Source: Schmidtea polychroa
Lineage: Eukaryota
Assembly: GCA_044892525.1 (NCBI GenBank)
Contig: CM097888.1
Coordinates: 31,062,001 to 31,126,000 of the forward strand
Reading direction: 5' to 3'
DNA: 64,000 nt
Positions 5,661-32,702 of this stretch are shown here, one piece after another (positions within the stretch are counted from its first letter, which is position 1; each line of letters begins with the position of its first letter). Made by a program: the position numbers and the translations under genes. The notes under the pieces were generated by a model that was not told the DNA's origin, made no database searches, and saw nothing but the letters and a program-made list of their open reading frames with translations.

Positions 5661-5947
5661 CAACAATTTGCCTCTGGTCCAAGTGAGGTCTTTGGATTGG
5701 TCTACATGTTTACGATGCGGCCGGAGAACAATTTATTAGTTATTCGACTATCAACGAGACACATTTCGCAATTTAAACATTTATTATATTCAATCCAGTT
5801 CTAGATACATTGGGAAGGAAAAGTACAAACATCCAACAGATTCACATTTCAGACACAGTATCACAATTCGTTCATCAAAAGATTCACAATAGTAATTTGT
5901 CAGACTAGAAGGGATTTGTGTTGAACCCTTCAGGTGGGTATTGGCGA

Positions 5948-6647
5948 TTACATATCCCCTTCTGCCAACATTGCGTCGATGTCATGTTCTAACACTGGGT
6001 CGAGAGATTGCCGAGAAACTGTTGTTGGCGCGACTTTGGTTGTCGAAGCTGGACCCTCAGGGGATACTACTTGTGCCTGAGTGACAGTGAACAAGGTCGC
6101 TTCTAGAGCCGCAATTTCCTCACGCCGTTTCTTAGTTTTTTCTGCGCGTGTCAATCGCTTTTTACTTTTCTGCTTGGGCGGATCAGTCTGGGTTACCCGC
6201 TGAGAAGTTGAGGGGTTTACAGGATTCACGATTGAAGGTACGGGTACCGGTATTCGTGTCTTTAGGACGTCCGTAATGACTGGTGACCCGACCGTTGGGC
6301 CATGAGAATCACAGCAAGTCGGGTGAGCCGGCTCTGGATGAATTAATTTCTTTTGTCCAAGATGGGATATTCGGCAATGCGCGCCTTCAATTAGGCTTCC
6401 GAATAGATGCGGTGGAGAGCCGCTGGCTCCGACTTTCCTCGAGCAAACTGTCCAGACAGTGTTCGAGTCTGAGAATCTTCATTTGGGCCTCTTTCACCCG
6501 CACTGGAGTAAACCAGGTACCTTCCAAGGTGTCAATTTTCCGCTTTAATGATCCTATGTACTCAGCCGATTTCTTCAGTAGCGCATTTTTTTCGGCGCAC
6601 GAGAAACACGGTCTCTGGCCGGTTGGAGGGAGATTCGGTTCTGACAT
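5948..6647 (-). pseudogene. LTR-encoded coiled-coil protein (ORF-B family), ~230 aa with one frameshift
   Basis: ORF 6647-6387 joins the open frame ending at 5948 if one A near 6400 is removed (..RLSTASIR|SLIEGAH..). Motif KIDTLEGTWFTPV is shared with 21091-21469 and 33538-33892. Confidence 0.6.
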
Positions 6648-8754
6648 TGTTCTTGAAAAATACTAAAAATATGCGAAATGGTTAAATTACCCCGATACAA
6701 TAATTAAGTTTCGCAAGGTCCCCCAAAAAATCTCTACTAAACCAATTCCCCTGGTCGGTTTATTTACCCCGCGAATTCCATACTATTAAATATTCGCCAA
6801 TTCTTCTGGATTTAAATGAGTAGGGACAGAGTCTCGATTGAGAAACAATTGAATAACCACACCTTTCTCCCGCATTATCCAAACCTAACTGTCGATTTGA
6901 AGTTAATTATTTAAATTTATTTTATCGACGGTGAATAATTGTGAACTTTACAAGGTTATCATTAATTTTCTTATTATTTCCTTTGCGGAAAAATCTTATT
7001 CAAATTTAAATGACGTCCAATTCAAATGCATAAAAGTTTCTATGCTTTACTATTCGACATTTGAGCAAGGAGATGTTAAAAAATAAAAATCAATTTAGTT
7101 AAAAATAATTAGGAAAATATCAGAAGATTTGTTATAAATTTATTTATTATAAATTCGTTTATGATAAATTTAATATAATTATAATATACACCTAATATAC
7201 AGATTTCGACTGGCTTGTTTACATTGCTTATTTAGATCAAATAAAAAAAAATATCTTCCGATGTGTCGCCTGAATTTGTGTAGAAATCCGGACTTATTTT
7301 TCTCCCGCTTATCGCCATTCGAAACGATTGGTTGCGGACGTTTCTGTCCGGGAATTTTCTCTAAACCGGAGTTATCGGTGGCTGATTTACCATAGGTTGT
7401 GTACTGAGTGTGAAGGTATAATGTGCAAATAATTCAACTTCGTGGTTATCCCTGTAATTAACTGTCGACTTCCCCGCAGAACATCCATCATTCACTCATT
7501 AAAGTACAGGTGAATTACGTAACCGGCGTAGTCGCAATTTATGCACACTGGCTGGATGAGTGGCGGAAAATTATGGGGATTCTTACTACGTGTGGGACGG
7601 GTGTGTTGCTGCTGTATTTCTGTTTATAGGTGTTTTAGATTTTTGGATTTCGCCGATGCCTCTTCACCAGCTGGGTTAATTAGCGAAAATTGTTTATGTG
7701 AAATGCCGAAATCTCGTTAATTCATCAGGTGTAGCTCTCGTTCTATGTTTGGCCGATTTTGATTCTTAGCGTTATCAGATGGGAGGCCCTGCCAAATATT
7801 GACAAGTCGATTGAAACTGGTAAGGTTTTTGTTTATCATATTATCTTGATATTACTACAGAGTTTACGATGGAAAGTATAGATAACCCGGCGGCAAGACT
7901 TCTCTACTAGTTGGCGGTTAAACCCGTTAAAGTACAACTCTATAGAAACCAGACAAGTAGAAGGTCAATCTCGATGGTTTAATCGCTTCTGTGAAAGGTA
8001 TTTCTTGACTATCGAATGCCTGAAGGGTATGAAATTCAATATCTCCTCGCGATGTCTCTCCTATTTCACGATGGCAATTTGCTTTTACCTACAAAAGATA
8101 CAGATGGGTCATTGCCATCACCGAGCCAGAGAACCTATCGTTTCCACATATTATGTCAGATTTTATCCACACCCAACTACCCACTACGCTATCACTATAA
8201 TCAATCATACAGCAAGACGATCTGAGCCCTATCGATGCGAGCATCAACAGTTCCAGACGTCCTCCCAGCTAATCAATCATCATCAATAAGTAAATCGAAG
8301 TAATAATAATAAAATTTATATTTATAATATTAATAAAACCTAGACTATTCCGTCACGGTTACTGTACTACCGCTACCTTATAATAGATATCCACTTGCTC
8401 TGCTGAAAATGCCGAAACCTCTATTACACTTCTCTAGTCACAAAATCCAACTATCCCGACTAGTTCTATTCCATCTTATCCGATCCTCTCCGGCTACATC
8501 TCGACTGGCTAAATATTTCTTCTGCTCCCTTCCTCCGGGTCATAATCCGGTTACTCAACCAAGTTCGTGAATACAAGTGTCATTCTCCCTCACGCTACCC
8601 TGCATACACATTCCATCGGCTCATCAGCACTTCATGAATCTCCGGATACTGCTATATAAATTTCTTCAAAATCTGTCTATACAACCATCCGTTCGTTGCT
8701 GTCATTAACAAACGCTATTGATAAGGTTTTTGTATAACATAAGGCGGTTTATAA

Positions 8755-9164
8755 TGTGGTTAAATTCAGCGCGCCGTCAAAAGACTCTCTCCGAATTATT
8801 CCCCGAAAATCCTTCTGTGAATTATTCCCCGTAAATTACTTCTTAAAATCCAAAAGAAACACAATTCAGCGACAATACGTTTATTAACAATTAAATATTT
8901 TAACAATTATATTTGAATCGATACATTATCAATTTCCAACATTAAACTTAAGAAAAAACCCGATCGTATGAGTCGCCGCGGTGGCAACCATTAAAACAAA
9001 CATCAGAATAATAATATTACAAATATTTTAACATTTTAATTCCAACTTTCTCATAATGCTCCCTTGCACTCTACAACACAAAATATTAAACCTTTCAACA
9101 TTCGAACTATAATCAGTTTTAAAACATTTAATTATAACAAACTTAAATGACCCTTTTACTCACA
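8755..9164 (-). repeat. 3' LTR (410 bp)
   Basis: Direct repeat of 10481-10890 with 2 substitutions. Confidence 0.95.
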
Positions 9165-9196
9165 TCCCCCCGAGTTTGTTAAGTAAGCACACACTC

Positions 9197-9925
9197 TTAT
9201 TCGTTGCATGCTCGTATATTTTTAACATGCATACATACCCCATCAACAGAAACATTCCATGCCGAATTTACATCTGTTACCACACCTTCTCTCCACTCAT
9301 CCATGCAAGTCGCATCACCACCCTTTACATGAACGACATCACCAACTCGAAACTTTCCACTCGTTTCATTGTCCCGATCTCTTTCAACATTTTCGTCATT
9401 CAACTCGTATGCATATATGGAAGCAAATGGCACGGAGCATTCATCTTGACCCTCGCGCGGCGACGCATTATACCAAAACAGCATTTCTTCCACAGTTCCC
9501 CGCGTTCGAGCCACCATCCTTTTTATTGTCCTGTGGTTACGTTCCACAATTCCATTTCCAGAAGATTCATACGCACATCTATACATATGCTTTACTTTCC
9601 ATTCATCACAAAATTTTCTCAATGCATCGCTTTTAAACGCTCCTCCATTATCACTAAGTAATTCTCTGCAAAACCCTCTTTCGAACATGGTCTTTCTTAT
9701 CGCATTCAACACGCTTCGTACACTTTCATCTTTCAACTCATGCCATATTGCATACCTCCCGGGTCCGCAGTCCACTACCGACAAATACTTCTTTCCCTCC
9801 AAATGCACAACATCCACTGCTATTCTGACCCACGTGCCACCCACGCTCAACTCACCTTTCGGCATTCTACACGCATGCGGATCAACGGTAGCACACTTAA
9901 AACAATTTCTCACGACCGCCTCCAC
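9197..9925 (-). CDS. Retroviral-type integrase core (rve); N-terminal His pair of the HHCC finger deleted
   Basis: CFKC, RIAVDVVHL, LLSDNGGAF, SSGNGIVERNHRTIK give the D-D-E triad. Confidence 0.9.
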   Translation of the reverse strand: MEAVVRNCFKCATVDPHACRMPKGELSVGGTWVRIAVDVVHLEGKKYLSVVDCGPGRYAIWHELKDESVRSVLNAIRKTMFERGFCRELLSDNGGAFKSDALRKFCDEWKVKHMYRCAYESSGNGIVERNHRTIKRMVARTRGTVEEMLFWYNASPREGQDECSVPFASIYAYELNDENVERDRDNETSGKFRVGDVVHVKGGDATCMDEWREGVVTDVNSAWNVSVDGVCMHVKNIRACNE

Positions 9926-10337
9926 GTCCTTTCGATTCTATTCCCGCGCTCTTCACTAATCTCTTCAAGTTTATGGCATACAAATCTACCTTATCACTCA
10001 CACATTTCAAGTTGACAAACATTTCATACGCTGTATATTTGTTTATGCCAAATGTTTTACGCAACGCCGATTCCACACCCCCTTTCACGTCTCGTTCTTC
10101 CTCAGACATATTCATATACACGCTGAAGGCCGAACCATCCAACAATAGCGGCATAATGCGTCTCGTGTCTTTAATGCCTTGCACATCGCACACCATTCTA
10201 ACTCGTTCCAACCATTCCTCAACATCCAAACTCCCATCATACTTCGTCACAACATTTAACACCCTTATAGACGACTTCACCGCGTCTTCATCCCGAATCC
10301 CCCCTTCATTCATTCCACTTTTTACTTTACTTGTCAT
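9897..10337 (-). CDS. Gypsy gag N-terminal fragment, running out of frame into the integrase at the deletion junction
   Basis: LDVEEWLERVRMVC..MPLLLDGSAFSVY..ALRKTF resembles retrotransposon gag; junction near 9930. Confidence 0.75.
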   Translation of the reverse strand: MTSKVKSGMNEGGIRDEDAVKSSIRVLNVVTKYDGSLDVEEWLERVRMVCDVQGIKDTRRIMPLLLDGSAFSVYMNMSEEERDVKGGVESALRKTFGINKYTAYEMFVNLKCVSDKVDLYAINLKRLVKSAGIESKGRGGGREKLF

Positions 10338-10468
10338 TTCAAAACAATTTATTTTAAAAATCGAATTTTTAAATTGTTTTTAATAATTAAATGTTCTCAA
10401 TACTTTTTACAAATCAAACTATTGAAAAGCTATATTATGTATCATTCAAAGTACAAAAAAAATATCTT

Positions 10469-10480
10469 GCCCGGATAGCT
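10469..10480 (-). promoter_or_regulatory. Primer-binding-site position complementary to nt 1-12 of tRNA-Lys(UUU)
   Basis: The + strand reads GCCCGGATAGCT directly abutting the 5' LTR, identical to the 5' end of animal tRNA-Lys(UUU). No canonical TGG-type PBS is present. Confidence 0.65.
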
Positions 10481-10890
10481 TGTGGTTAAATTCAGCGCGC
10501 CGTCAAAAGACTCTCTCCGAATTATTCCCCGAAAATCCTTCTGTGAATTATTCCCCGTAAATTACTTCTTAAAATCCAAAAGAAACACAATTCAGCGACA
10601 ATACGTTTATTAACAATTAAATATTTTAACAATTATATTTGAATCGATACATTATCAATTTCCAACATTAAACTTAAGAAAGAACCCGATCGTATGAGTC
10701 GCCGCGGTGGCAACCATTAAAACAAACATCAGAATAATAATATTACAAATATTTTAACATTTTAATTCCAACTTTCTCATAATGCTCCCTTGCACTCTAC
10801 AACACAAAATATTAAACCTTTCAACATTCGAACTATAATCAGTTTTAAAACATTTAATTATAACAAACTTAAATTACCCTTTTACTCACA
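10481..10890 (-). repeat. 5' LTR (410 bp)
   Basis: Direct repeat of 8755-9164. Confidence 0.95.
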
Positions 10891-11989
10891 TATAACAACT
10901 CATATATTCAAATAAACTTTTCATACAAATTGAACTAATCTGGATCATGTATTCCAATAAAGTCTTCATAATCATATCATTCCAAACAGTATCATTGAAA
11001 CAAAATCACCCTATTGGCATAATCAAATCATTTCTAGTTAATACAATCGACACCGTGAATTACTAAATCAATAAAAAATATGATCGAAATGAATTACCAT
11101 ATTGGTATAACTAAATTACTTTTAATTAAAATGATTGAAAGAATAAAGAACAAGCTTATACTCATGTTATAATTACAAATTTAAAATGAATTAAAAAGGT
11201 GCTTGTAGAATTCATACGTTAACATCTAAATCAACCAAATAAATCTTACATTGTTACTAGTTAAGAATTGAATTGGTCGTCTATATCGAGTTAATGGCTG
11301 TAAGTCGTCCCGTGGATAATAGTCCTGAATTATAATTTTAATACCTGAGAGAATAAGCCGCTCGGTTTTCTTATATACTGGATTCTGTCCAATCAGAATC
11401 CAGTGCGGTTGTATAATTTTATTTTTATTCATTTTTTCTCTTTTATTCTTTTCTTATGTTTTTCTTTATTATTTTTAGCGATTTTATTAGTAAGTAATTT
11501 TTCTATTCCTATTTTCCTTTCTTTGGTTGATTTTTGAGTTATTTTATCGCGTTTTCTCACTTATTTGCATTTCCTTAATTATTATTACTAATTTTGGGTT
11601 GGATATTATTATTTTAATTTTTCTTGCTATCTCTTTCTATTATTTTTAATATTTTTCTATTATTTTCCTTCTTAGGTAATTGTTTTGGATTTTTTATTAA
11701 ATTTTTCGCTATTATTTTTCTATTCTTCCTTTCTCCTTGGCTAATTCCCTCCCCTAATTCTTATTCCGTTATTTGTCTGGACCTTTATATTTATTGAAAA
11801 TCAGCCCAACAAATCACTCCGGGGCCCGTTAAAATTGCAATTTATAATTCTAGAGCAAAATTAAAAAAAAATAATACAAAATCACGTGTCGAGTTCACAC
11901 ACTACCATTCAAACATATGTCATACACACACAAAAGTTAAAAGATAAAAATTATATTGATAGTTAAAGGGAAAATATAAGACAAGCAGA

Positions 11990-13440
11990 CGTCACTTAAG
12001 GTGACCAGGTTTATGTACAGATAGTTCATTGTTAATTCGTGTCACATACTCAAATTGTTCAAAATGTTGTTAATGCAGTTGCCGGTTGGCTTTCGAAATC
12101 CTTTCGGGAGCTTTGGATTGGGTGAATTGACAACGTTGTTGAAGCAGTGGGTTGGATTGTGGCATGTACATTGTTGGAAGGTGGATTTTGTTGTGGTTGG
12201 TCAATTTGGGTTGGTTGTTGGAATCGTACAGTCCTCTTCGGTATGTTTCTTGGTTGCGGATTCTTCTTTGTTGGTTCTGCGAACGATAGCTGGTTTCTCT
12301 GCCATGTCTGGTATAGTTCATATGATCTCCAGATGATTAATGTACAGATGATGAGGGTTTCGCTGATTATAGTATAGAGCCAGACATGGCTCTCTTTCGT
12401 TTCCTTTTCTAGGGTGGTTTCTTTTTGTGATTGTTGAGTGGCTTGTTGTTGCAGGAGGGTTTCTAGTTGCTCGATTCCTTGGTTTTGCAGAATGAGTTGC
12501 GCTTGAATCTTTTGCCAGACGGATTTTTTCCAGCATTGTTTTCAAATGTGGTTGTAGGGCTTTCTTTCGTCTCTCAATTTAGTTGTTGGCTCTTGTTGGG
12601 AAATCTGATTTTCTGTAATCTTCTGGCTTTCTTGGGGTAGCTGCTTCATCAGAGTTTCATTTATTATTTCTACTATTATTACGAGGGTTGCTCCGGACCA
12701 CATACTACTATACATATATTTTATACACAAATATTTACATTGATTTCTCTATCTTTATTTATCGGAGGACTTTCTTTCTCGGATAACTTCATTATTTTGG
12801 TCTCCGCTTTTATTACCCTTTTTCTCAATTCGGGCAACATTTCTAATTGTCTGTCTTTTTCGTGTATTTGCTGTTTCAGAGTTTCTTTTAACATATTTAT
12901 CTCTTGTGTTGCTTTATCTAGGTTTTTGTGGTTCATTAATTGTAGGAAGTCGTTTTCTCTTTTCTCGTCTTACCCGTCTCTCTTTTCATCGTCTATTTCT
13001 TGATATTTATTATTCATCTTCCTCATTATTTCGCATTCCCTTTGTTTTTGGTGTAACTGAAGTTGAAAATCTTTCAGACTCTCTTGGTGTTTCCGTGCCT
13101 CGGTTTTCCAGTAATAGTTGATTACATCATCTGCCTTTATACTCGCTCTTTCCTGCCAAAATTCTTCCGTGATCTACTCCCAGTTTTTCCCTCGCTTTCT
13201 TTGTTCGTGAAGCCATTCGTTTTCCTCTTCTACTTCTTTCTTTACTTCCTCCAGTAAATTATATTCTTTTTTCAGCACTTTAATCATTCTTCGGTTATCT
13301 CTCCATCTTTCTATTAATCTTTCGTTCTCTTGTCTTGTAATTCTTCCTTGATAGTTTTCTTTCGCTCTACTTCTTCTATTTCAATTTCTCCTTCTAATTC
13401 GATTATTAATGTTATGGTGGATTTTCTATATGGTGGATAT
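11990..13440 (-). pseudogene. Decayed long coiled-coil plus transmembrane ORF (retroelement accessory or env-like)
   Basis: E/K/Q-rich frames interrupted by stops and frameshifts. 12730-12058 is one frame with a single TGA and contains the hydrophobic segment VWLYTIISETLIICTLIIW followed by a P/Q/T-rich tail. Confidence 0.5.
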
Positions 13441-13619
13441 ATATATGGTTAATAGTGCGCTATAGGGCGACTTATACATATACAATTATTTTCTGGAATA
13501 TAGTTTCCAACTTAAATGGCGGGTTACACTCCCTTTACTACTTTTATTGTACTATTAATTTTTTTGTTTGGGATACAGCTCCCGATTTTGTACTTTTTTG
13601 TCTTTTTATTAATTTTATT

Positions 13620-14403
13620 TTATACAAACGTTTCCTCCTGACCCCCGTATCCTTCGTCGCTTTCAACTAATGACTCCAAATGTATAGCGATTTGGTCGTG
13701 TGGTAGATAGTACCTTGGAAGTTGAGCCCTCAGCTCGTGAACTTCATCTCTAAGCGCCCTTGAGATGTTCAATTCCTCATTTAAGAGATACGTGATAGTA
13801 CTGGATAGTACTATGTTTCGTTGCTCCAGTGCTCCTTTATAGCCATTGTTATCCCGTTCCAGCTCCGCTACTTTGTTTACTAATTCTACTATCCTTCCTG
13901 ATTGTTGCAGGATCATTTCCTCCATGGCTATATTTTCTTGTTCTTTCAAGGTTATCTTCATTGCTAAGTGTATCTCGAACTCCATTGCCTTTGTTTGCCA
14001 CGTTTGACTACGTGCGGCGATTCTCCTGAGTTTTTTCAACTCTTCTTTTTGATTGAGGTTTTCCTCCCATTTCTCTTGCTCGTTATCGAATCCAAATTTT
14101 TGAGGCAGTTCCTTCATCTCCTTTTTCAGTTCTTTGTTTTGTCGCTTACATTTTCTGGCTTCTCTCAACAGATGGTTAGTTTTTCTCCCTTCTCTTTCTT
14201 TTTCAATTTCTCGTTTTTTATTCTAGTCTGTCAGTCTGGACTCTTTTACCAACTGCTTTAAATAGTGTCCGTGTGCTTCTTGGCGGGTATTCACTAATGC
14301 CCACCATTTTGCGGCTCTTTTGCAGGCCCCTGCCTCTGCCATCAAATTTTGAATTAACCACTGGGATTGATGGAATTCCCATTCCCTTGGACTTTTTGTT
14401 CAA
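13620..14403 (-). pseudogene. Coiled-coil ORF (~260 aa), one frameshift
   Basis: ORFs 14403-14218 and 14168-13620 join if one T at ~14220 is removed (..DRLE|KKREIEKERE..LREARK..). Heptad-rich. Confidence 0.55.
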
Positions 14404-15433
14404 AATATCTTAGATGGCATTCTAATCAACATTACTCAACTCTTAAATTACAAAAGGTTAGATTACTTTTAATATCTACTTTCATTATTTGGAGTATTAT
14501 TTAACTAAATAATTTATCTTTTTTGACAGTCCTAATTCATTTTATCACTTGAGTCTCTTTAAATTATAAATTTTCATTCAAAATGTTACATGAAAACATA
14601 ATTAGTACGTTCATAGCAATTTGATTTTTGTATTTTTTATCGACATTTAATTATTAAAATTAATTATGAAGTTAGTACTATTTACTGAACATATAATTAT
14701 TTAAATTTATCCATAATTATTAGCTGATAAATATTTATCTATATATTTTAATAATATATTAATTAAATCGATTTAAAATATTTAAATGTTAGAAAATTTT
14801 ATATTATTTTTTTTGATATTTTGTATTTTCAAATGTTATATTTAAAAATTTCCGATATATATCTAATACGTCAATATTTATTTCGTATTATTTAATTTTT
14901 GCTGCTCACAAGAACAAAATTTTATGGAAAATAAATTTCCTAAACTTTTCCATCGCAGTGGCATGATTTTGTGACGGAAGTCCAACAAAACCGACCCCTG
15001 ACATGGACGATACAGGCAGTTCACACCTCTTATAATCTATTGTTGTTTATAACAATTCTATTAATGTCGGATGAAAAGCTATTATTTATTTAATTATTTT
15101 CTAATTAACACACTGGCTACTGACAACCACACATTTCCAATTGTTGTCCAGGGTAGCCAAACTCCGACAATTGGGAATGTGTTTGTTGTTATTTATTATT
15201 AATGATATGTTAATGAAGTTTTATTTAATTGGTTACCCATTTATTTATTTGTTTATTTATTTATTTTTTTTCATTTTTCAATTTGGGGTTTTACTGATGA
15301 GCTACTAATTAATAAATGAGAAAAACTCGAGTTCAACCTTATTTATTTTATAAATATAATATATATAATTTAATTCATTTTTATTTCCAATTGTTTGGTT
15401 CCATGTTGATACCGTATTATTGTTTCTTCCCGC

Positions 15434-15965
15434 TCACATATTACCCCTTCGATGGTTACAGTCTCCAACATCAATATTCGAAGTGCTTTTCCTTTTTTTT
15501 TCGCTTGTCGACATTCGGGCATTGGACCATACTAAAGTGTTGGGTGTATTCTTACCATCGAAACACTTGTCATTAATGAAACACATTCTTGTGAAATTTC
15601 CAAAAACGATTCGGTGGCCCACTTCAATGGAATTAATGGATTTTCAATCTCCATCGCCACATTCTCGTCGATTGTCAAATTAATTTCTTCTGATTCCAAT
15701 ACATCGTCAACCGGAATTTGTGCAACTTTCTCCGTTATTGTAGTCGATGTTGATGCCATTTCTCGAAGTTTCTTATATTCATCCAACGAATATCTCTTCG
15801 ATGGTTGGTTTTTGGGCATTGGTATATCATAAATCCATTGATTTTCACTCTATGATATACCTTGCGAATGCTTTTTACGTCCTCGAGAGCTGAATGCACA
15901 CCAATTTGGGTCTCTTCTTCACATATTTCTCTTACTACGGTTTGTAATTTAAACCACTGAAATAT
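15434..15965 (-). pseudogene. DEDDh (REX4/ISG20-like) exonuclease C-terminal part plus SLDEYKK tail
   Basis: QWFKLQTVVREICEEETQIGVHSALEDVKSIRKVY (ExoIII H..D) followed by KRYSLDEYKKLR; colinear with 24500-24951. Confidence 0.75.
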
Positions 15966-18284
15966 CAAAAAAGAATTTTATAATATTATCTTCACATAAC
16001 TCAAACAATTCCATATGTAGTTCGCTAGGCGCCTTTGCGATATCAACTAGATGTGGTTCAAATGCTTATCTCATTGTGATACTATGTTCTTCAAATTCAG
16101 AAAACCGTTGAGTATATTCTTCAATTAATGAGTCCAAAACAGCAATATAATCTTGAAATGTTGCACTAGCAGATTTCTGCTCATTTAATACTTTTTCTAA
16201 TTGCGGATAATGCTCTTCCGATCGAGAGAAAATAGTTTTGAAAAATAATATCTTTTTTCGAAGACTGAATTTTTTGCCAAATATCATAAATATGTTTTGT
16301 TTTACCTTGCAAAGAAATATTTAAATCATTCTGCTTTACCATAATATCACACAAAAATGCAGTATTTCTGCAAAAATTTTAATCTAGTAATTCGCATTAT
16401 TGTTTGTTCCTCATAAAATCTTATAATTTGTTCTCGCAATGATAAAACTTTCACTAAAACGTCCTCTTGATAAACATCGAACTTTGCAATGATACGGCAA
16501 ATCTACACTGTAGGTATCATCGTCGGACATAAGAAGGTTTCGAAATTGGCGATGTCGTGTTGCATTTGCTCTGATGAAATTGACAATTACAATAATTTTT
16601 TCTAGAGTATTGTTTAAAGAAGTGGATTTAGCACAAAGATTTTGTTGGTGCAATATTCAATAAAATGAGATTAATAATTTTAAATTTGCATTGTCCTTTT
16701 TTAATAATGAAACGAAACCTTCTCTTTTCCATTTCATGTAAGGTTCACCATCAGTATATACACTCACCAGATTATTGTTGGGCTAGAACTGACTTCATAG
16801 ACCCAAGTTTCTAATTGTGACCGAAATGTGTAGGTACACTGCATGCAAAAAGCAAAAAGTATAGTTAAATATTAAAAACCACACCAAATAAACAATAGTA
16901 ATTAAAGGAAAAAACAACAAAAACCTAAAACACAGAAATTAAATAAAATTCATACAAAAGCAAGCAGTTATGCCAAATCTAACTCAAAAATAACCAAATA
17001 AACATAGAATTACAAAAAACAAACTCGAATAACTTAAAAGATGGTAAAAACAGCAAAAAGTTCCAGAAAAACCCAGAACATTCCATAAAAATGGCGACGA
17101 CCATCACAACGGCCATCTAGAACAACAAAAGTTAGAGAAAATAAATAAATTAGTATTAAAAATAAAAAATCTTAAAAAGAAATTCATGAAACAGCAGTTA
17201 AAATGAAAATTGTATTAAAAAATAAAATAGAATGTTCTGGAACCGTTCCAAATCCATCATGGACGTAAAATTAATGAAAAATAATTAGAAAATAAAAATT
17301 TAAAAATAAAAACAAAAATTATAGCACTAAAATTTCCATTAAAAATATCAAAATCACGAAATAGAAAATTCTGGAATAAAAAGAATTCGAGTTTGTTTTA
17401 ATGCATCAATACATACACGTGTACAAAATAGGTATATATACCGACGCATTTTGGTCACAAAAAAATCTTTTTGTATGCCAAAAATTTTCGTAACAAATTT
17501 GGACAACACCGAAAGTAAGGACTGTTGTTTGTATGTATTTTTCATTGTTATATTATTATTCTATTTTATTATATTGATTTGCATTGAATTAATTTTTTCT
17601 TTTTTTTCATTTATCCTACTATCACGAAATAAGAGTGACCAGCATTGTGAACAGGTTATAGTCACCATGCTGATCAGCCTTGTTTCCAACTAATAGTTCA
17701 CATGCACAAATTCGGGTCTACGACCCCACATGCATAAAAATTTAAACATTTTTTATTAACCGGAGGTCGCCACGAACAAATGGTTCTAACCAGGAGTAGG
17801 GCGGTAAATCCATACCGGTAGTTGGCATAGTCATAGGGACTATGCGGGCGAAATAAACTTCGGGAAAGTAATCGCGGGAAACATAACACAATAAGGCCTA
17901 TCGTACCGTATTCAGTTGAGTCTGGAAAGTAGGAAAATTTTAATTAATTCGACTTTTCAGTAAATTACATGCTTAAAATAAACACTCAACCATGCTATAG
18001 GAGACATAACATTAGGAAAATCTAAACGGGAAATATCCCAGACTCAATGTACTTCAAAGACACTCCGGTAGTCGGCTAATTGCACAAACCATTCGATTAT
18101 TTGGTGCACTTAATATTGAATATTATTAATAGACGTTGTCGATTGTATTTATAATTATATTGATCAGAAAATTAGTACTCAATGGCCCGAATCTAAGAAA
18201 AATTCAATTTTATAATCATATAGTTTACAATGAGCTATTGAACGTAATATCCGGATTATCGGGAGGATAGACATTAAATCTTAT

Positions 18285-18640
18285 CATTATCATTTAATAT
18301 TATTTAGATACTATAAAATTCTAAATCCATTTATTGTGTTATTGTCATTAATATTATTTAAATACCATAAAATTCTAAATCCATTTTATTGGATTATTAT
18401 CATTTAATATTAATTAGATACTATAAAATTCTAAATCCATTTTATTGGATTATTATCATCCAATTTAGATACTATAAGATTCTAAACCCATTTATTGTAC
18501 TATTGTCATTAATATTATTTAGACATCGTAAAATTCTAAATCCATTTTATAGTAGTATTATCATTTAATATTATTTCGATATCAAAAATTATAACCCCAA
18601 TTTACTGCATTATTTTCATTTAGTATTATGAGATTGCCAA
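18285..18640. repeat. ~55-bp AT-rich tandem array, about 6 copies, inside the LTR
   Basis: The unit core CTATAAAATTCTAAATCCAT recurs at 18311, 18365, 18421, 18472, 18527 and 18582. Confidence 0.9.
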
Positions 18641-19763
18641 CCCCTTTTTATGGTGTTGTTATCATTCAACATTGTTTGGATGTTGTCTCAAATTACCAAT
18701 CCGATTTAGCTTATTTATTAATATTAGAGTCAAAGGATGTTACAATTAAATCAAGTAAATTCTCTCTATATTGGCCTTAGCGAGACCCTTAACCTAAAAC
18801 CCCACCCTAGCCTACCTATTGAGTACATACCTCATCTAACTAATTTATTGATTTATTGAAATGCTACTATAAATAGAAAATTCGAAATTAACCTTATTGA
18901 TTTTCTTTCCCTCATGATAAGAATCAGCCAATGGGACCACTTCTATTAATAGCAACCACCCTACGAACCAAAAGGGACCTCGTCAAACTCATTCTGGCTG
19001 ACCAAATGGGCGATGCATACGCTCTTCTAAATGCGCCAATCACTGTCGACCATGTCATTCGGAACTCTGATTTTCGTGTGAAACCTATCACACCCACGCG
19101 AAGCTAACCCAAGTTACCCCAGTAGTCAACCCATACACGACAGGAAAGACAAAGGACCCTTCTCCTTCCTTTTGCTTCTACAGGATTAGCTGCCTAAGTT
19201 AAGATATAAAACCATAACCCAGAATAATAATTAGCCAGCGGTTTATGACACTTTACCATAAATTCATGAATTACTTTAACGTAGAGAAAAGTACTAATAA
19301 AATTACCCAATAATTGTTGCATATTGCGAATCATATGTTATATTGATAAAAGGATTAATGAAATTACCCAACACCAGTTCATAAAGTGGTAGGATGAACA
19401 TTAATTATCTGGTTAAATTTGCCAAAATGTGCTAACCAACAAGATCTCAATTCCTGAAATCAGACAAGTTAAAGTCAAACTCCCTCTTACCCGTTAAGTA
19501 TCCGTTGTAGAGCAAGCCACTTACAACCATCCTGGTCAAGGACTCGCAAAGGGCTGAATATAAATTCAGGCCAGTTGAAATATCCGTTTCCAGGATGAGT
19601 CTTAGTAGCACGATTTGATGATTGAAAAAAAAAAATTACCAATAGATAATAAGATTAAATTATAAAGATGAAAATTCACATCGGATTAAATGCGAATTAA
19701 TATTTAAAGTGACGTAATTTGATATAAATAAATCAAATAAATCTTTGAATGATTTAAACAACC

Positions 19764-19980
19764 AGTATCGGAGGTTTAATTGATAATATTTTAAATATTT
19801 ATTTTTACTGCGTCAACTATATCGGAAGTTTAATTTATAATATTTTAAATATTTATTTTTACTGCGTCAACTATATCGGAAGTTTAATTTATAATATTTT
19901 AAATATTTATTTTTACTGCGTCAACTATATCGGAAGTTTAATTTATACTACTTTAAATATTCATTTTTACTACACCAACC
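19764..19980. repeat. 54-bp tandem array, about 4 copies, inside the LTR
   Basis: TATATCGGAAG starts at 19818, 19872 and 19926, with a variant near 19765. Confidence 0.9.
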
Positions 19981-20221
19981 ATTTATTCATCAAACATAAA
20001 ACAATGGATCCCCAATTTAAATGTTCTGTATTTTCCTATCCGTTACTTGTAGGCCTCGACTTTCACAACTCCCAAGTCAACCTACCTTTAACTAAAGAAC
20101 CGAACACGGAAATTATTTGGCAACTCGAACCTGAATGAAATAGTGTATAAAACGTCTGGGGGTAACTGGATATAGAGGAACAAAGGAAAATTTCCCTAAT
20201 AATTCTTTTAATTTCGTAGAT

Positions 20222-20698
20222 ATGCATAAGCTCGGATCAGAAGACGGCCACGCGAATCCCTTGGCATCCGCGGTAAGACGCAACCTAACTCCAGAAGAGG
20301 CAGGTGAGGTTACCAGATTGGACCTACCAGTGGTCCCCGTAATCCCGAAGGTGGAGCCTTACCTTAATCGCGCGTCATTAGCTTTGATAGACGCCTTTGA
20401 CGAGGTGACGGTGGCGATAGACCGACTACGCCGGCTCGAGAAAGCAACTTTGGCTGGTGAATTAGAAGACTGCGACGGCTACGCTCGAGCCCAATGTCAT
20501 CCGAAACGAACTGCAGCTCTTCAACGTGGATTGAAATACCCAAGACGGTTTCAACGAGGACCGGGACGACCGAGGAAACGCGGACGCACGCAAACGTCCA
20601 CCCACTCGACCAAGGAGAGTGCGGAATCGGAGGCTAGCGGAAGCCATGTGACTAACATTGGCGCGGGGTCCAGACGAAAACCTCGGGATAGAAACTAA
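20222..20698 (+). CDS. LTR-encoded ORF-A, 158 aa, with AT-hook-like basic motif
   Basis: Intact ATG-to-stop ORF; TATAAAA near 20149; GPGRPRKRGR; homologous to 32813-33052. Confidence 0.6.
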   Translation: MHKLGSEDGHANPLASAVRRNLTPEEAGEVTRLDLPVVPVIPKVEPYLNRASLALIDAFDEVTVAIDRLRRLEKATLAGELEDCDGYARAQCHPKRTAALQRGLKYPRRFQRGPGRPRKRGRTQTSTHSTKESAESEASGSHVTNIGAGSRRKPRDRN

Positions 20699-21090
20699 TC
20701 ATTCTGTGCTGACCTTAGAGTCGGGTGTATTATGTGATGTTATGTACTGGGTTAAACATCTTTAATCCAGGGTCGAATATTATACATTATGTCTTGTTAG
20801 TTCATAATTATTTGATGTTTGTTTGCGTTTGATGACCGATGACCACCCGATTGTAAAGATTGTCTGATTTTTAGCGATATACATGACGTGGAGTACCACC
20901 AGTTGACCACAAACTTCCTGCAGCGTTGCCTTGACAGCCCTACCAGGTTGGGGAGGCCACATGGAACTCGTTTTTGAGTACGTTTGGCGGAGGGTTGCGA
21001 CGAGGTGATTACTTCGTTTAACATCTACACTTATAATAGCGCTCAACCCTCGATGCTGGTGTAAAGATTATTGACGTTATCTCGTTTTAG

Positions 21091-21469
21091 TGCAGAAACT
21101 CCTGGAAGAGATGCGAGCAGATAGAGAACGGGCACAACGACAGGCAGAAGAATACCGGACCAAGTCGACACGAGTCAAGGCCCACTGTCGGAACTTCGAG
21201 TGCACCTGGTTCCCCCAGCGGAAATGCAGAAGAAGATGAAGTTGATCACTCAACTACAACTTCAGAATGCACAAGACCAGATTGAGTTGCGGGCCCACCG
21301 CCTGAGAATGAGGGAGCTGGAAGTCAAGGTGCACCAACAGGACCTGGATCGAGAGGTCATTGCCACGATCCGGCCCTTGGATGAGTTGCTCCGTCGAACG
21401 AAGAAGTGCACCCCAACAGCAGTAATCCCAAGGAAGAAGGTTCGGCTGGGCAAAGCGGCGCGAGAATAA
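21091..21469 (+). pseudogene. LTR-encoded coiled-coil ORF-B exon, 1-nt frameshift in a C run
   Basis: After the acceptor TTTTAG: KLLEEMRADRERAQRQAEEY..CRNFECTWFP|PAEMQKKMKLITQLQLQNAQDQIELRAHRLRMRELEVKVHQQDLDRE. Confidence 0.65.
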
Positions 21470-21659
21470 GACAAGCCAGCCAGGCCCAATTAACTCTCCA
21501 TTCTACTGGATCAGAGGCTACCCCAAGAGAATCGACCAGGAAACCTTAAGTTGTCTATGTGGTCCGAATAAATCTTTACTGGTGTATCCGTGTCTGTACA
21601 TTTTGATTTTTTTTTGGTGTTGATTATTGCCACGGGGACGAAAAGAAACCGGACATAGA

Positions 21660-21867
21660 CCTTCTATCGGTAGTCCGTGAACCCCAGTGGGCACTAGACA
21701 ATTATAGTATGTTAAGCATGCTCACTTTTTGCTAGTGCCCAAACCCTTGATACAGTACCAACGTTGATCGCTCAACGGGTATCAAGTGGTCAGCTATAAA
21801 TTGTATTCTGGGTTACGCTGGAAACAGCCCGAGGAGGTAAAGATTTTTCAGTACCTGTAACCCACCA
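21660..21867 (+). ncRNA. Conserved structured RNA at LTR 3' end (U5), copy 2
   Basis: Stems GGGCACTAG/CTAGTGCCC, CTTGATAC/GTATCAAG with an ACCAA bulge, and GGGTTAC/GTAACCC enclosing GCTG-GAAA-CAGC and AGGTA/TACCT. Confidence 0.75.
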
Positions 21868-23881
21868 TTATCAAGATTTAGTCCTTCTTCACGATATTTT
21901 TCTTTAAAATTATCATGGATATCAATTCCACAAGTTCTTCCGGTAAGTGTGCCCAAAGCCATTAGTTACTCATAACACTGAAAATATTCAGTTATAGCAC
22001 GAATAAAATATAATATTTAAGCCGAGTCAGTTTTATCAGTGGATTCATCCAATGCTATTGAAAAATATACCTCCTTATTTTGAATTATTGTGCGAAGCTG
22101 TTCTGTCACATTATAAGCTAATTATAAGCTAAACTATAAATAATAATAACTCCAACCAATTACGAAATTAAACTAAATCATTTGCAGTTGCTCAGCAACT
22201 GTGTTTTACCGCAAAACGAGGCCTACTGTGTTTATCTTATAGAAAAGTAACCGAAAAAATATTTGAAAAATATTATTAGTATTAATAATTATTTCAAAAA
22301 TTTCCACAAAAAGAATTTCAATTGTAATTTGTAATAAAATACAAAAAATGTGAAAGAGCCGCATGCGGTCTTAAGGCCGCAAGTTCCCCACCCTAATTTT
22401 AGTGTGCGAGTATGTGTTGGTGCATTGATTCGGTAAAACAAATTTGAATTATTATAATTCTACTTAATTCTAATTAATTTTATTTTCAAAATGTCATATT
22501 TTATTTTTAATTGAATTTGCCGCCATGATGGATATGGATATTTTCTAGAATATTCTAAGCTGTTTAATGATCCACTAGCGGCCATGGTGGATTTCATTAT
22601 TATAGAATATTCTATTTTTCTGTTCATTTCTGCTATAATCTTATATCCCTATTTGACTTTTTGAATATATTTTGTGGAAATTTTCCTAATTTTTATTCCT
22701 ATCTCTCCTTATCGCCAATAATTCAAATCTGCCTACTTGTATTATGTATCTAACTTGTGTTTGACAAGATTTCAAGTAACACATTGGTTTCATATTAGTT
22801 TATTTTTGTGTTTACTAATTTTCTGTTGAGTGAATTCTATTTATCTGTTTAATTGGTGGTTGGGCGTGTTTGATTTTAACTCTACTTAATGTTATGCCTG
22901 CCTGTTATGTTCCTAAAATTAGGTCTAAAATTAGGTCTAATGAGGTAAAATGAATTTCGAGGACAAAAATTTTTTTAAAAGGGGGGAGATATTTGGGGTT
23001 GTAAATTTAAAAAGTATGTAATTAAAAATGGAAAATTGGAAAATTCAAAATCAAGAGATCAACAAATTATCTAATTCAAATTTGACAAACCAGTCAATGT
23101 TTTTATAAATGATAAAATTCAGGTAGTGTTGGACGGACATCGACAACAAGCAAAGTGTAGCCTTCAAAATTCAATAACCAAACCAACATCAAATGAATGC
23201 ATGATGAGAATTAAACATTGCAAGCAAAAAACCAACTCTGACCGGTGACATATCGTATTCATCGAAAATAGACATATTAATCTTCATAATAATAAATTCG
23301 TTTAGAAAATTTATCGCTGCGGCTTAGAATATTGATAGAATTGTTACTTTCATCAGTTATTGAGATTAAAATAATTTAGATGAGTAGGATGCCAATTGGA
23401 ATGGCCATAATTACAAATATGAACGATATCTTAACACAATTGCTAATGAATAGATTCTCTTTACAGTTTAATGATAGAATATTGTTTTTTACACATAATA
23501 ATGTCAATACATCTTGTATTGTGATTATTCGTGTTCTCAAATTAAATTGTCCTTCCTGTGATTTGATAGGTTGAGCTGTTGCACTACTGATGGGAGAATT
23601 GGGATATAAGAGTATGGTTGTTTTCAGATGACTTGACAAAATTTTAACAGAAGAAAACGAGAAAAATTAAGAAAAATCAAATAGAAAAAAACAATAAGCC
23701 GACGAAATCATACGCGCAATATTTTGCAGAAAAGAGAAGCCGAATGGGAAAAATCATTGTTGTAGAAAAAATGTGAAAATCCAAAATTGGGCGAGGACAG
23801 GAAATGAGGAAATGAGAATATATTTGATGGAAATCGAATGGTAATTCAATACGAAGCTAGCCGAATTATTAGTGAGGAAAA

Positions 23882-29300: not shown

Positions 29301-31622
29301 CTGTAGTCGCCACAAGCTTTCCATTCCCCGTTCGCCTTTTGTTTGAGCATTAGGGTGGAAGATAATTCTGAGTTTGAATGTTTTACTATTTTGTTGTCGA
29401 GTAATTCTTTGAAAATTTCTTTAGTGTACTGGGTTCCCCAATGTTATGATTGAGTGTTCGGTCGGGTTGTCCGAATTCTAGTTGAATGTTACTGGTTCGG
29501 TTAATTTATTAAAATTTTTTACTAGTCGAGTTATTGCGGGACCGTGATTGGCTGCTCTGTTTTTATTGGTTGAGGATTGTTTGGATTACTCCAATGTCAA
29601 TTTGAGGGTAGTAATTTGTTGTTGATTGTTTTCGTTTTTGTGATGGGGTTTTCAACTAAATCTGTATTTCTGCAGTCTACTTGTAAGTTATAGTGTGATA
29701 AGAAATCAGCACCGATTATTGATTGTTGTACTGCGGTTAGAGTAAACGACCAGGTGTACTCTTCGTGGTTAATTGTTATAGTCATTATATGTTGTCCGAA
29801 TGTACTTATGTTGTTACCGTTATCTGCGGTGAGTTTGTTATTTGTTGTTTTGAGGTTTTTGAACATTTTGTGGGGTAATATGGAGACCAGTGTCAATCAG
29901 AAAATTATTGTTTTGTGATTGCACCATGAACTTTTTATTTTTGTCGCCAAATGTCGGTGCGATTAATGGCGACTTCATCAGTTTTCCTGTGTTTTGTAGT
30001 TGCACGGGTTGTTGCATTTGTATGCTTTATTCCCGAACTTTGGTGGTAGTAGGAAATTTCATCTTTATTTTTGTCTGTGATGTTAAATGAGGCTTTGTGT
30101 TTTCGGTTTCGTGAATCTGACTGATTTCTGTTATAACGGTTTTGTGAAAGATTGTAGTTTTGTCTTAAGCATTTTCCTTTTATTTCGGCGAGTTCACGTT
30201 TAATTTGTTTGTTTCAATTATTACTTCATCGAATTTGCTGATCAGTGTGTTAATGAGGTTGGTTGTGATTTCGATTGTTTCAAGATTTTTGTTCTTATTG
30301 TTTGGTGGTTAGTCGTTGTGGTATGATTGGTTTTTGTACTGATTTTGGGTGCTGTAGATTATGGGGTTAATTTCTTCATTGATTTGATTTGGTATGTCCG
30401 CTAATGTTTGATGTCTGCGGCTAAGATTAATCGTATTTCTTGTGGTATAGCGCGTATGAATAATACTTTAATTAGCTTGTTTAATCCTGAACTGGTGATG
30501 TTTGGTTGTAGTTGTTCCAGTTTGTGCTTTAGTTGTCTGAGGAAATCGGCATGTTAGTTGTCCCCTATTTGTGTGTTGTTTAAGCAGGACTCCAGCATTT
30601 GTCCTTTATTTATTTTATTTTTTGATATTAGTATGTGACAGTTTGTTGTATGGGTTCTCACTTTTTGAGATTTCGTTTATTTGGTCTGCAATTTCGTTGA
30701 GTTTGTTGGGGAGAGCTGCAATTATGTTTGAACACAGGGCTTTTGTTGATTTTACGCCTGATAGTGTTAAAGCTAGTTTTGCGAAGTCTAGCCATTTTTG
30801 AGGCGTTCCATTTTCATTGATGAAATAAGTATGGATATTCGGTTTGGGTTCATAATTGAATTTATAGAAAATGGGTTAGTTAATGAATTGAACTGGCGGT
30901 TGGTGTTGTCATTCGTTAATGGAATATTTTCTTCACTTATGTTTGTGAATCCATTGGATATTTGGTTATCTTCTTGCCAAAATCGGTTGTTTGTGTTTGT
31001 TTGCATTGATTGGTGATGTTTGTTTGCATTTTAAAAAGAATTGTTTTAATCAAGGATATGGCTTACTGTGTTCAGCCTAAAGTGCTACTATTCTTTATAC
31101 ATCTACATTAGGTATGCTAAAAGCGTTAGTGTTTTTACGAGTGTATTTTGTATATTTTTGCTCCTGACACCAGTTATGTTGTAAAGTTTAAAGTTATACT
31201 TATATGTTTATATAATTATGTTTATGTATTTATGCTGACACTTATGTGTTACCAGAAATTTGTGAGAACACAGCAGAATCTCATTTAAAACTTGTTTTGG
31301 AATTGCTGGGTGCTTGTGTATGTAGAGTATATAAAAATAAATTTTATAATAGAACAATTAGAACAATTAGAACAAATATTTACTTTAACTTAAAATACGA
31401 AAATAAACTAAATTATGTTATTAAACTTTTATTCAACATAAAGATCAAGAAGATTTAATCACTTAGGGTTCCTTCTAATACGAATCCAACAAAAATAAAA
31501 CCCGAATATGTTCCAATTTCAATCTTTCAATCTTCGCTATTTATTGTTTAGTTTTTGGTTTATTTCTAGTATCTTCTTTCTGTGATAATAAAATATATAA
31601 AATTATTATTGTTATATTAACA
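26370..31622 (-). mobile_element. Decayed Gypsy retrotransposon (CsRn1-like gag), 3' LTR split by a hAT insertion and partly deleted
   Basis: 5' LTR 31177-31622; 3' LTR 26370-26417 plus 28834-29080. PBS TGGTGTCAGGAG (tRNA-Leu type, 31172-31161). Gag ..KFGNKAYKCNNPC, protease FLIDTG, RT ACGDYSMLDKITEADNYPLP. Probable TSD ATTAT, in low-complexity context. Confidence 0.85.
26418..28833 (+). mobile_element. hAT transposon with BED-finger transposase pseudogene
   Basis: TIRs (G/T)AAGGCATC; 8-bp TSD ATTATTTT/ATTATGTT; VWEYI..KCKNCHKILK..TSGLHKHI BED finger; SLSFDEW, RWNSLLSML, LEPVKLAVEALCR. Confidence 0.85.
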
Positions 31623-32702
31623 ATTATTAGTATTATTATTGTTGATATTATAAATATTATAACTATTAGAAGTAAATCAAAAAATTAAAACAAGTTTTTA
31701 CTTACGTTTGATTACCCCAGTAATAAACTTACGAATCGAGTTGGGATGACGTACCAATAAATTCTTGTATAGAACTTTAGATATTGTAATATAGAAAAAT
31801 TACAAGTGTACACAAACAGTTTTTTTTAGATGGAAATTCCATCCAAAACGCTATAATATAGTATACAACATGGAATTCTTAAGTATATAACTTCCTTCAA
31901 ATAGATTTTTAGCAACACAAATCTAATATAATTCACCTTGATACACAGCATCAGATTTCCATAAACCCTTTATATGACTATTCCAATACGCTCATAACTA
32001 ATGATAAACTGTATTATTACATTTTCTCGTCCAAATATTTGTAAACTGTCTTGTACTTTTATCAATCTCTTTTTCTCAAATTAATATCATCGTGCATTTA
32101 CAATTTTGCATTACATAGAACTTTATAAAAATGCAAATTTTATTGGTTGGACAAAGGGTTAAAATAAATCATAATTTCGATATTCTTTGATTTTGGAATT
32201 TCGGCAGTGATGGGTGTTGAGTAGGGTTTAACTAAAACTAAATAAGGTTTCATAAATCTTTGATGGATTTGACAATTCGATCGGAAAAATTTAAAATAAA
32301 TTTTTGGGAAAAAGTCAATAAAGATTTCTGTTGTCAAGATTTCTGGGTCAGTCACATAAACATGTTGTTTTATAAATATTTCAATAAATGGATATAAAAT
32401 GAATGAATGAGAAAGATGTATATTTGTTTAAAAACATTTCAAAATTGGTGTACTAAAATGAAATTTCACAATTTTGATTACTTTATAGTCTCACTTAATA
32501 GAGAATTTAATTTCAAGTATATTGGCATAAAAATATCTTATAAAAAATCACAATTTATGACGTAATCAATGATTGAAACAAAAATAAAATTATTATACAA
32601 ACAAAGATTTAGACAAAATTAAAATTATTACATAATCGATAATTAAGACAAAATTGAAAATTGAAAAAAAGTACTGGGGATCTTTTAAAAATTAAAAAAA
32701 AG

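Follow-up and report, generated by a model that had tools for sequence, protein, structure and literature searches.

A solo LTR of a Burro-type giant gypsy element in Schmidtea polychroa with two conserved protein genes and atypical priming signals

Introduction

The stretch of DNA analysed here (hereafter the window) comprises 64,000 nucleotides of Schmidtea polychroa (assembly GCA_044892525.1, contig CM097888.1, positions 31,062,001 to 31,126,000 of the forward strand); positions are counted from its first letter. At 16776..21867 on the forward strand it holds an insert of 5,092 bp, which is a solo long terminal repeat (LTR) of a Burro-type giant gypsy element that has landed in a hAT transposase gene. 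A first-pass annotation, made from the sequence alone, had seen in this insert a gene-carrying LTR of an undescribed giant lineage, working as a self-contained mini-genome of enhancer repeats, regulatory proteins and an RNA element. Comparison of LTR copies shows that these LTRs carry two conserved protein genes, named ORF-B and ORF-C after their open reading frames (ORFs); a splice acceptor precedes each of them, and the poly(A) signal comes shortly after. One of them, ORF-C, is a gene of the LTR that the annotation had overlooked.

Burro/GYPSM1 elements of dugesiid planarians exceed 30 kb, have an internal region of about 25 kb and occur in thousands of copies (PMC6431247, section 7, which cites Jurka 2007 and Grohme 2018). 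Their layout comprises gag with CCHC, MATH, an env-like fusion domain in frame between gag and pol, protease (PR), reverse transcriptase (RT), RNase H (RH) and integrase (IN) in this order, and ankyrin, BIR and RING domains (PMC6431247). A passage in PMC13465017, citing the work concerned, credits the BIR-RING cargo of Burro with a supporting role in planarian stem cells and regeneration.

Results

The insert has TG...CA ends (first bases TGTTGGGC, last bases CCCACCA) and is flanked on either side by TTAT, the 4-bp target site duplication (TSD), at 16772..16775 and 21868-21871. Both termini and both TTAT copies were read directly and agree with the first-pass annotation. The interrupted gene (16000..22500, reverse strand) encodes a decayed SPIN-type hAT transposase, the type being given by PF18658 and PF05699 in a paralog. 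Removal of the insert had been said to restore the hAT ORF. Indeed the frame is continuous across the site; with several stop codons in both flanks, however, no open gene results. Both site-spanning hAT paralogs (L062 and L064, among three fetched) carry an empty site, i.e. a single TTAT without insert, and one public contig connects 16770 directly to 21867. As annotated, no gag or pol was found within the insert; nor does a primer binding site (PBS) lie directly 3' of it. Solo LTRs with intact TSDs arise via LTR-LTR recombination. Since the insert is such a solo LTR with intact TSD, we assign it this origin, and the window copy is most likely a decaying recombination product. Together with three further copies described below, it represents one of four families that have little in common beyond their termini and tail; the insert belongs to family A and the copy at 5412..11811 to family B.

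A genome search returned two full-length family-A LTR matches 31 kb apart on the sequence C3. There, the two-LTR element G000:C3:123979530-123943085 measures 36,446 bp, with LTRs of 5,517 and 5,680 bp that are 99.7% identical, the TSD AAAC and an internal region of 25,249 bp; its 5' LTR is 89.2% identical to the insert over 4,906 aligned columns. The Pfam order is RING; gag with CCHC; MATH; Monjiviricetes fusion; protease, RT, RNase H, integrase; ankyrin; Sina/MATH; BIR-RING, the polyprotein being split over several frames. The env-like mononegavirus fusion domain (PF24664) lies between gag and pol in both families, with E values of 6e-69 in family A and 3e-47 in family B. Likewise, the order PR-RT-RH-IN with gag and CCHC N-terminal to it is found in family A and the same core in family B (integrase by tblastn). 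The cargo comprises MATH/TRAF, BIR, RING and ankyrin, all four in family A, and MATH plus ankyrin in the scanned family-B pieces. Between the two families the RT-RH protein is 90% identical and pol DNA 70-75%; their LTRs are unalignable by blastn. All six two-LTR elements sampled have a 4-bp TSD and LTR pairs that are 99.7-100% identical. Solo LTRs carry a 4-bp TSD in 11 of 13 cases; hereby, 7 of 20 family-A solo candidates, which lack one terminus under the strict pattern (L034, L036, L037, L044, L047, L052 and L054), were excluded from the TSD and ORF tallies.

The search for two-LTR elements and their PBS thus recovered both, with gag-pol in both families examined and an exact tRNA-Pro PBS. 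This bears out the earlier assignment of the LTRs to a giant gypsy lineage. Judged by size and domain order, the element is a Burro/GYPSM1-type giant gypsy and not a new class; it agrees with Burro/GYPSM1 (PMC6431247, section 7) in size, domain order and copy abundance, and the proposal of an undescribed lineage has to be given up. A new class of mobile element devoid of gag and pol, as the window copy taken by itself might suggest, can be dismissed with near certainty, being refuted by the gag-pol-bearing two-LTR elements of families A and B. Moreover, among the matches listed, 57 of 65 family-A PBS sites on C1 are paired with a downstream 3'-LTR cassette (family B: 50 of 57).

Genome-wide, 3,372 exact family-A 5' termini face 383 family-A PBS junctions, which suggests that about 2,600 family-A LTRs are solo or partial copies. 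Internal sizes on C1, again among the matches listed, fall into two main classes: 27 of 57 family-A pairs measure 24-27 kb, 18 measure 9-12 kb and 12 are of other size, while 21 of 50 family-B pairs measure 20-23 kb, 27 measure 10-14 kb and 2 are of other size. Derivatives with internal regions of 9-14 kb are thus abundant in both families (L030-L032; L059-L060). A short family-A element (n = 1) has kept RING and gag and contains a 1,479-aa ORF that joins gag to the pol C-terminus; env, PR, RT and IN are missing. Homologs of the LTR ORFs were found in neither of the short elements inspected (the one of family A, without ORF-B and ORF-C, and 3.3 kb of LTR from one of family B). An LTR that lacks both ORFs in a short non-autonomous element is what would be expected if the ORFs encode trans-acting factors. 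Four family-A PBS junctions with a shared spacer variant lie about 15.8 kb apart at G000:C1:39424153-39471590 (reverse strand), representing a tandem array or a duplication of a truncated element. A suspected two-LTR element of a family C (L016/L017) was not confirmed.

The 5' part of the insert is A-rich (16776..17475; 50% A in these first 700 bp), and the first 1.3 kb of the LTR are 86-91% conserved within family A. Two AT-rich tandem arrays follow at 18282..18629 (55-bp unit, 6.4 copies) and 19766..19971 (54-bp unit, 3.8 copies), so that the A-rich part and the arrays stand as annotated; the array type varies between subfamilies. Between the arrays lies a conserved non-coding island (18867..19107), a candidate enhancer or promoter, with CTA(A/T)4TAG boxes at 18867 and 18943 and CCAAT boxes near 18928 and 19037, motifs that we take to be MEF2-like and NF-Y. 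At least two CTA(A/T)4TAG boxes are present in 8 of 15 LTRs, compared to 0.2-0.5 expected per LTR. ORF-A (18931-19107), which had been proposed as a regulatory protein gene, lies inside this island and was rejected as a protein: its ATG is lost in four of six aligned copies, and substitutions are spread evenly over the codon positions in five of five comparisons.

ORF-B (20222..20698, forward strand) encodes a helical protein with an AT-hook-like motif. The window copy has 158 aa, an in-frame deletion having removed a conserved Trp-rich segment; in 13 of 18 family-A LTRs ORF-B reaches at least 150 aa, and the RGRP core of the motif is retained in most copies. A putative GT-AG intron of 58 nt (20162..20219) lies in its 5' UTR (untranslated region). 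All 10 aligned copies have an AG two bases ahead of the ATG, and all 9 family-A copies a GT(A/G)A donor. A 44-aa ORF at 20004-20138 was rejected as a coding first exon, its ATG being present in 4 of 10 copies and its stop preceding the donor. Two near-length searches returned no ORF-B homologs, the one match to a longer protein covering 12% of the query and the AT-hook only, and no PDB fold match was obtained.

The second gene, ORF-C, occupies an exon at 21091..21549 (forward strand) with its acceptor AG at 21089-21090 and an ATG at 21111. Its product is predicted to consist of a coiled coil, a TW..P hinge and an Arg/Lys-rich helix. The window copy is frameshifted near 21210 and 21470, while ORF-C is uninterrupted in 13 of 18 family-A LTRs. 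Of 10 copies, 9 have the acceptor and 2 lack the ATG, with no conserved donor nearby. Since the codons past the acceptor stay conserved where the ATG is absent, ORF-C probably has an upstream exon. A homolog of 253 aa is present in the family-B LTR and another in the copy ending at 34306, in both of which the LTR DNA is unalignable. A long coiled coil is common to the family; across 14 sequences W and P are invariant and the best 17-residue window holds 4-11 Arg. The predicted model places the Arg-rich helix at 115-133. A profile search yielded 12 matches among 1.84 billion representatives. Most of these are longer proteins (P0002-P0012) in which the ORF-C stretch is joined to unrelated host-type domains (L21, CRAL-TRIO and GDC-P by Pfam); they are probably gene-model chimeras and possibly cases of exonisation. 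In the ESM Atlas, ORF-C hit generic coiled-coil clusters only, with a recognition score below the reliable range. Paralogy of ORF-B and ORF-C found no support (hhalign probability 0.2%).

To evaluate selection on the two frames, we compared substitutions between copies. The median dN/dS is 0.29 for ORF-B (12 natural copies, 62 of 66 pairs with defined dS) versus 1.08 and 1.20 in the shifted frames, and 0.19 for ORF-C (9 copies, 36 of 36 pairs) versus 1.34 and 1.63. For family B the ratio is undefined, dS being saturated at a dN of 0.23. The earlier claim that the LTR carries proteins under selection thus holds for ORF-B and for ORF-C, which it had not named. ORF-B had also been called spliced; the gene under purifying selection stands, while its splicing is backed solely by the conserved sites, with no joint in the contigs. 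One may ask whether the ORFs are merely neutral open frames in a GC-richer patch of an ordinary non-coding LTR. The damage to both genes in the window copy would fit such a view, as would the 5 of 18 sampled family-A LTRs without a long ORF-B and the 5 of 18 with an interrupted ORF-C. The frame-specific dN/dS of 0.19-0.29 and the protein homology between LTR families without DNA similarity speak against it, and we consider it very improbable.

Past the ORF-C stop, an AATAAA at 21567..21572 follows after 17 nt and is itself followed by a T/GT-rich stretch. The distance between stop and signal is 17 nt in 8 of 10 copies and 19 and 54 nt in the others. From the start of AATAAA to the LTR end we counted 301, 326/374, 367 and 324 nt in the four window copies and 299-306 nt in 18 of 18 family-A LTRs. 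The signal had been placed 295-361 bp from the end in all four copies; it is present in each of them, at 301-374 nt, but is missing near the end of 4 of 4 other family-B LTRs.

The remaining part of the LTR (21633..21867), its probable U5, is a covarying RNA structure whose final stem pairs the LTR end. With the pairs taken from the window copy's own fold (21 pairs, 8 other LTRs), 52 of 77 double changes keep Watson-Crick pairing compared to 15-38% for slid partners, in agreement with the structured tail of the first-pass annotation. Single-sequence folding of the sense strand gave z-scores of -2.8 to -4.5 in 12 of 17 tails and weak ones in the 5 most distant. Several loop motifs of the tail are common to families A and B. 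A search of Rfam returned no match (4 loci, E 0.5). A GTAAG donor-like motif precedes a conserved CCTTCT in 9 of 9 family-B-type tails (L010-L015, L024, L026 and window 5412-5700, reverse strand) and is absent there in family A. Three further ideas on the tail were dropped: an HDV-like ribozyme, judged by eye to leave no room for P2; a primer-activation-type pairing with the tRNA T arm, which was no better than in shuffles (15-77 of 100 reached it); and a tRNA-like CCA end of the LTR, family B ending in ACA. In one public run that is possibly RNA, coverage is limited to the first 1.1 kb of the LTR and the tail; we counted it neither way.

The PBS is an exact 18/18-nt complement of the 3' end of host tRNA-Pro(TGG) plus CCA and lies 8 nt past the LTR CA in family A and 7 nt past it in family B. 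In total, 991 LTR-end/PBS junctions have a spacer of 5-12 nt; among the 100 junctions listed, the spacer is 7 or 8 nt in 97, 6 nt in one, and two have a T-run lengthened to 8. A search for short PBS spacers was uninformative, the 100 matches listed having hit a CA inside the family-A spacer. The corresponding gap in Tf1 is about 9 nt. The genes for tRNA-Pro(TGG), the Burro primer tRNA, form tandem arrays with a 475-bp period at G000:C1:130901009-130952345 (L006-L009), and their 3' 22-mer has 2,164 matches genome-wide.

In standard reverse transcription, bases between the LTR end and the PBS are copied into the cDNA end, of which integrase usually trims 2 nt. Priming by tRNA-Pro at the PBS would leave the 7-8 spacer bases in the cDNA end, to be trimmed by integrase or a helper. 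These bases must presumably be removed, because integrated copies end at CA plus TSD. Hence, if tRNA-Pro primes at the PBS, it is likely that integrase or a helper has to trim 7-8 nt rather than 2.

No polypurine tract (PPT) was found before the 3' LTR, the longest purine run in the upstream 40 nt being 3-4 nt in 4 of 4 copies; the usual tract is present, as G6, in a small gypsy nested within the window. In Burro, this position is taken by a cassette that combines a perfect hairpin of 7-8 bp with a box of the GGG(C/T)CCC type and the GAGTG that follows it, with 1,144 cassette/LTR junctions and none in the control. As to whether the hairpin cassette marks the site of plus-strand priming in place of a polypurine tract, we consider the chances evenly balanced. 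Among the matches listed, the downstream box has C in 9 of 9 cassettes whose hairpin loop is GGG and T in most of those with a GGA loop; this correlation would preserve an alternative stem or may instead go back to a single ancestral event. A long-range duplex between the PBS region and the cassette (0 of 500 shuffles in family A, 29 and 38 of 500 in family B) is not general and was set aside. A second tRNA-Pro as plus-strand primer was also dropped, cassette variants having 3'-terminal and internal mismatches.

Discussion

Accessory ORFs at or inside the 3' LTR that are expressed by splicing are familiar from retroviruses, with sag of MMTV and nef of HIV in U3 and tas/bel of foamy viruses. 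Burro differs from these in having two genes wholly within a gypsy LTR of 4-6 kb, and no sequence relation to them was found. Among plant-type giants, multi-kb LTRs (1.9-6.5 kb in Ogre) and conserved extra ORFs of unknown function are described for Ogre/Retand in the passages concerned (PMC7264820; PMC6431247). There, the extra ORFs are internal rather than in the LTR, and a purine-rich PPT adjoining the 3' LTR is given as standard (PMC7264820). RNA structure around the PBS downstream of the 5' LTR, as in Burro, is described for Tf1/sushi, which by the same account is self-primed and keeps its PPT, in contrast to the exact tRNA-Pro PBS and missing purine tract found here (10.1101/2022.12.06.519325, in the part bearing on priming). 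A further likeness concerns Cer1 of C. elegans, whose regulator CERV is made from a spliced mRNA, is needed for export of unspliced genomic RNA, and is helical and multimerising (PMC10309623, in the sections on CERV). Like Burro, Cer1 is a gypsy-type element, and it has an export regulator comparable to HIV Rev in kind. ORF-C differs in lying inside the LTR, with 146-253 aa and an Arg-rich helix, and homology to neither CERV nor Rev was shown. The Rev likeness of ORF-C rests on composition and layout, because Pfam, PDB and viral-fold searches gave no match. ORF-C may work like Rev/Rex but is not a member of that group.

Weighing these points, we lean towards the reading that the Burro LTR resembles the regulatory end of a complex retrovirus, with a Rev/Rex-like RNA regulator and a DNA-binding activator. 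A working LTR would then combine arrays acting as enhancers, an island acting as promoter, two regulatory genes expressed by splicing, a poly(A) site and a structured U5. ORF-C, as a coiled-coil oligomer with an Arg-rich helix, would bind the element RNA, possibly at the structured tail, and would help the unspliced 30-kb RNA to be exported or to accumulate, in the manner of Rev/Rex or Cer1 CERV. By this analogy, a role of ORF-C as an RNA-binding oligomeric factor for the unspliced genome is conceivable, and we propose it with some reserve. Through its AT-hook-like motif, ORF-B would bind to its own LTR, at the island and the AT-rich arrays; the assignment as an activator or anti-silencing factor is equally tentative.

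Several observations weigh against this reading. The pairs behind the dN/dS medians are not independent, and open frames had guided the choice of copies; in the window copy, neither ORF-B nor ORF-C is intact; and family B has only an ORF-C homolog in the sampled copies. The match of ORF-B to the AT-hook PF02178 (E 0.021) scores 15.1 and 12.3 bits and hence stays below the Pfam cutoff of 17.4, and its structure model is weak (pLDDT 59). For ORF-C, searches with the LTR-derived copies came back empty from Pfam (E<=0.1), from PDB sequences and from the viral folds of BFVD. The AATAAA missing from the other family-B LTRs counts here as well. Contigs from four public runs, which cannot show starts, strand or level, contain no GT-AG joint. 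As to the identity of the element, Pfam (E 0.01) did not pick up the BCL2-, dUTPase- and SUMO-like domains described for Burro; HHpred had been used for the dUTPase- and SUMO-like ones in PMC6431247.

How the two genes would be expressed can be pictured in two ways. With a long R, transcription would start at the island near 18.9-19.1 kb, and any LTR, a solo one included, would give rise to short, spliced mRNAs for ORF-B/C with their 3' ends at the LTR poly(A) site. The conserved island with its CCAAT and TATA-like boxes upstream of both ORFs, the putative 5'-UTR intron ahead of ORF-B and the AATAAA 17 nt past the ORF-C stop fit this layout, and no TATA-like box was found just upstream of AATAAA. 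It requires, however, that R spans about 2.7 kb and that the 5' poly(A) site is suppressed; moreover, the island boxes are missing in 4 of 15 LTRs tested, including all three of family B, and no start sites were seen in the contigs, which cannot show starts. We regard the long-R layout as plausible and no more than that. With a short R, ORF-B and ORF-C would lie in U3 and be expressed only from the 3' LTR of full elements via upstream donors, solo LTRs being silent. Such a layout would avoid premature polyadenylation in the 5' LTR and would supply the upstream exon that ORF-C seems to need, given that its ATG is missing in 2 of 10 copies with the codons past the acceptor conserved and no nearby donor conserved; the GTAAG motif in the tail of 9 of 9 family-B-type LTRs could serve as donor. 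Against it, no recognisable core promoter lies beside AATAAA, and GTAAG is missing at that position in family A. To us, the short-R layout comes close to an even call, and it fits the sequence equally well as the mini-genome proposed in the first-pass annotation, for which transcription would have to start within the LTR, ahead of ORF-B.

The LTR ORFs may also be real and serve another role, as host-directed accessory proteins or particle components akin to the internal BIR/MATH/RING cargo. Burro indeed carries many host-meddling domains, and a long coiled coil with a basic patch is generic, the patch possibly being just a nuclear localisation signal. The position in the LTR beside AT-rich arrays and a structured tail, and the Arg density of distant ORF-C homologs, fit nucleic-acid binding. 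We consider this alternative somewhat less likely than not. The furthest-reaching version of the regulatory reading would make the LTR an operon with an internal promoter and spliced Rev-like and AT-hook mRNAs, many of the family-A LTRs that are solo or partial (approximately 2,600) acting in trans on the regulation of Burro and perhaps of host loci, with hairpin-cassette priming instead of a polypurine tract and a 7-8-nt integrase trim. We consider this combination unlikely.

With respect to novelty, the text of section 7 of PMC6431247 is silent on LTR genes, PBS spacer, missing polypurine tract, structured tail and 9-14-kb derivatives, while its figure may draw LTR ORFs. The literature search found no description of Burro LTR genes, the PBS spacer or the missing PPT; primary Burro papers, Repbase, figures and supplements lay outside that search. 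We are thus probably dealing with a known element whose LTR genes are under-described and whose priming signals are atypical. If the primary papers or Repbase already annotate these features, the finding reduces to an ordinary solo LTR. Expression and export of the unspliced 30-kb Burro RNA is not addressed in the literature found, and the two selected LTR genes offer concrete RNAi targets in a tractable animal. Should solo LTRs express ORF-B and ORF-C, thousands of seemingly dead repeats would be active regulators. Likewise, an LTR element of high copy number and recent activity (paired LTRs 99.7-100% identical) that lacks a polypurine tract and has a long PBS spacer would depart from the standard scheme of reverse transcription.

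Other features of the window

The copy at 5412..11811 (reverse strand) had been taken for a solo or partial LTR with the same termini. Instead, it ends in CCCAACA rather than CCCACCA and has internal sequence upstream, from 11812 on, which makes it the 3' LTR of a truncated Burro element of family B. It includes a broken ORF-C homolog at about 6647-5948. The adjoining internal 3' accessory-ORF region (11812..15530, end approximate, reverse strand) matches L058 at 40-89% by tblastx and contains, at the expected polypurine-tract position, the pre-3'-LTR cassette (11812..11850, reverse strand), here with its hairpin loop lost. Nested in this LTR at 8755-10890 (reverse strand) is the small gypsy mentioned above, with 411-bp LTRs that are 99.5% identical, a 5-bp TSD and a gag-like ORF beside integrase; no RT was seen in it.

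The 3' end noted at 34306 does recur, with the match to the insert being limited to the last ~210 bp at 78% identity (self-BLAST). It belongs to a 5'-truncated LTR of another family (31480..34306, 5' limit approximate, forward strand) with remnants of an AT-hook-like ORF-B at about 32843-33055 and of ORF-C at 33558-33935. Abutting it is another small gypsy (28832-31478, reverse strand) with LTRs of ~260 bp that are 86% identical and RT remnants. The copy at 57457..58373 (forward strand) has the termini and the TSD ATAT described before; it is a short LTR of 917 bp from a further family and contains no sense ORF of at least 50 aa.

Two further transposase regions lie on the forward strand: a piggyBac-type transposase (PF13843) at 61804-63003, split by an in-frame stop, and a second decayed hAT-like region at 27088-28600, recognised by eye from the translation.

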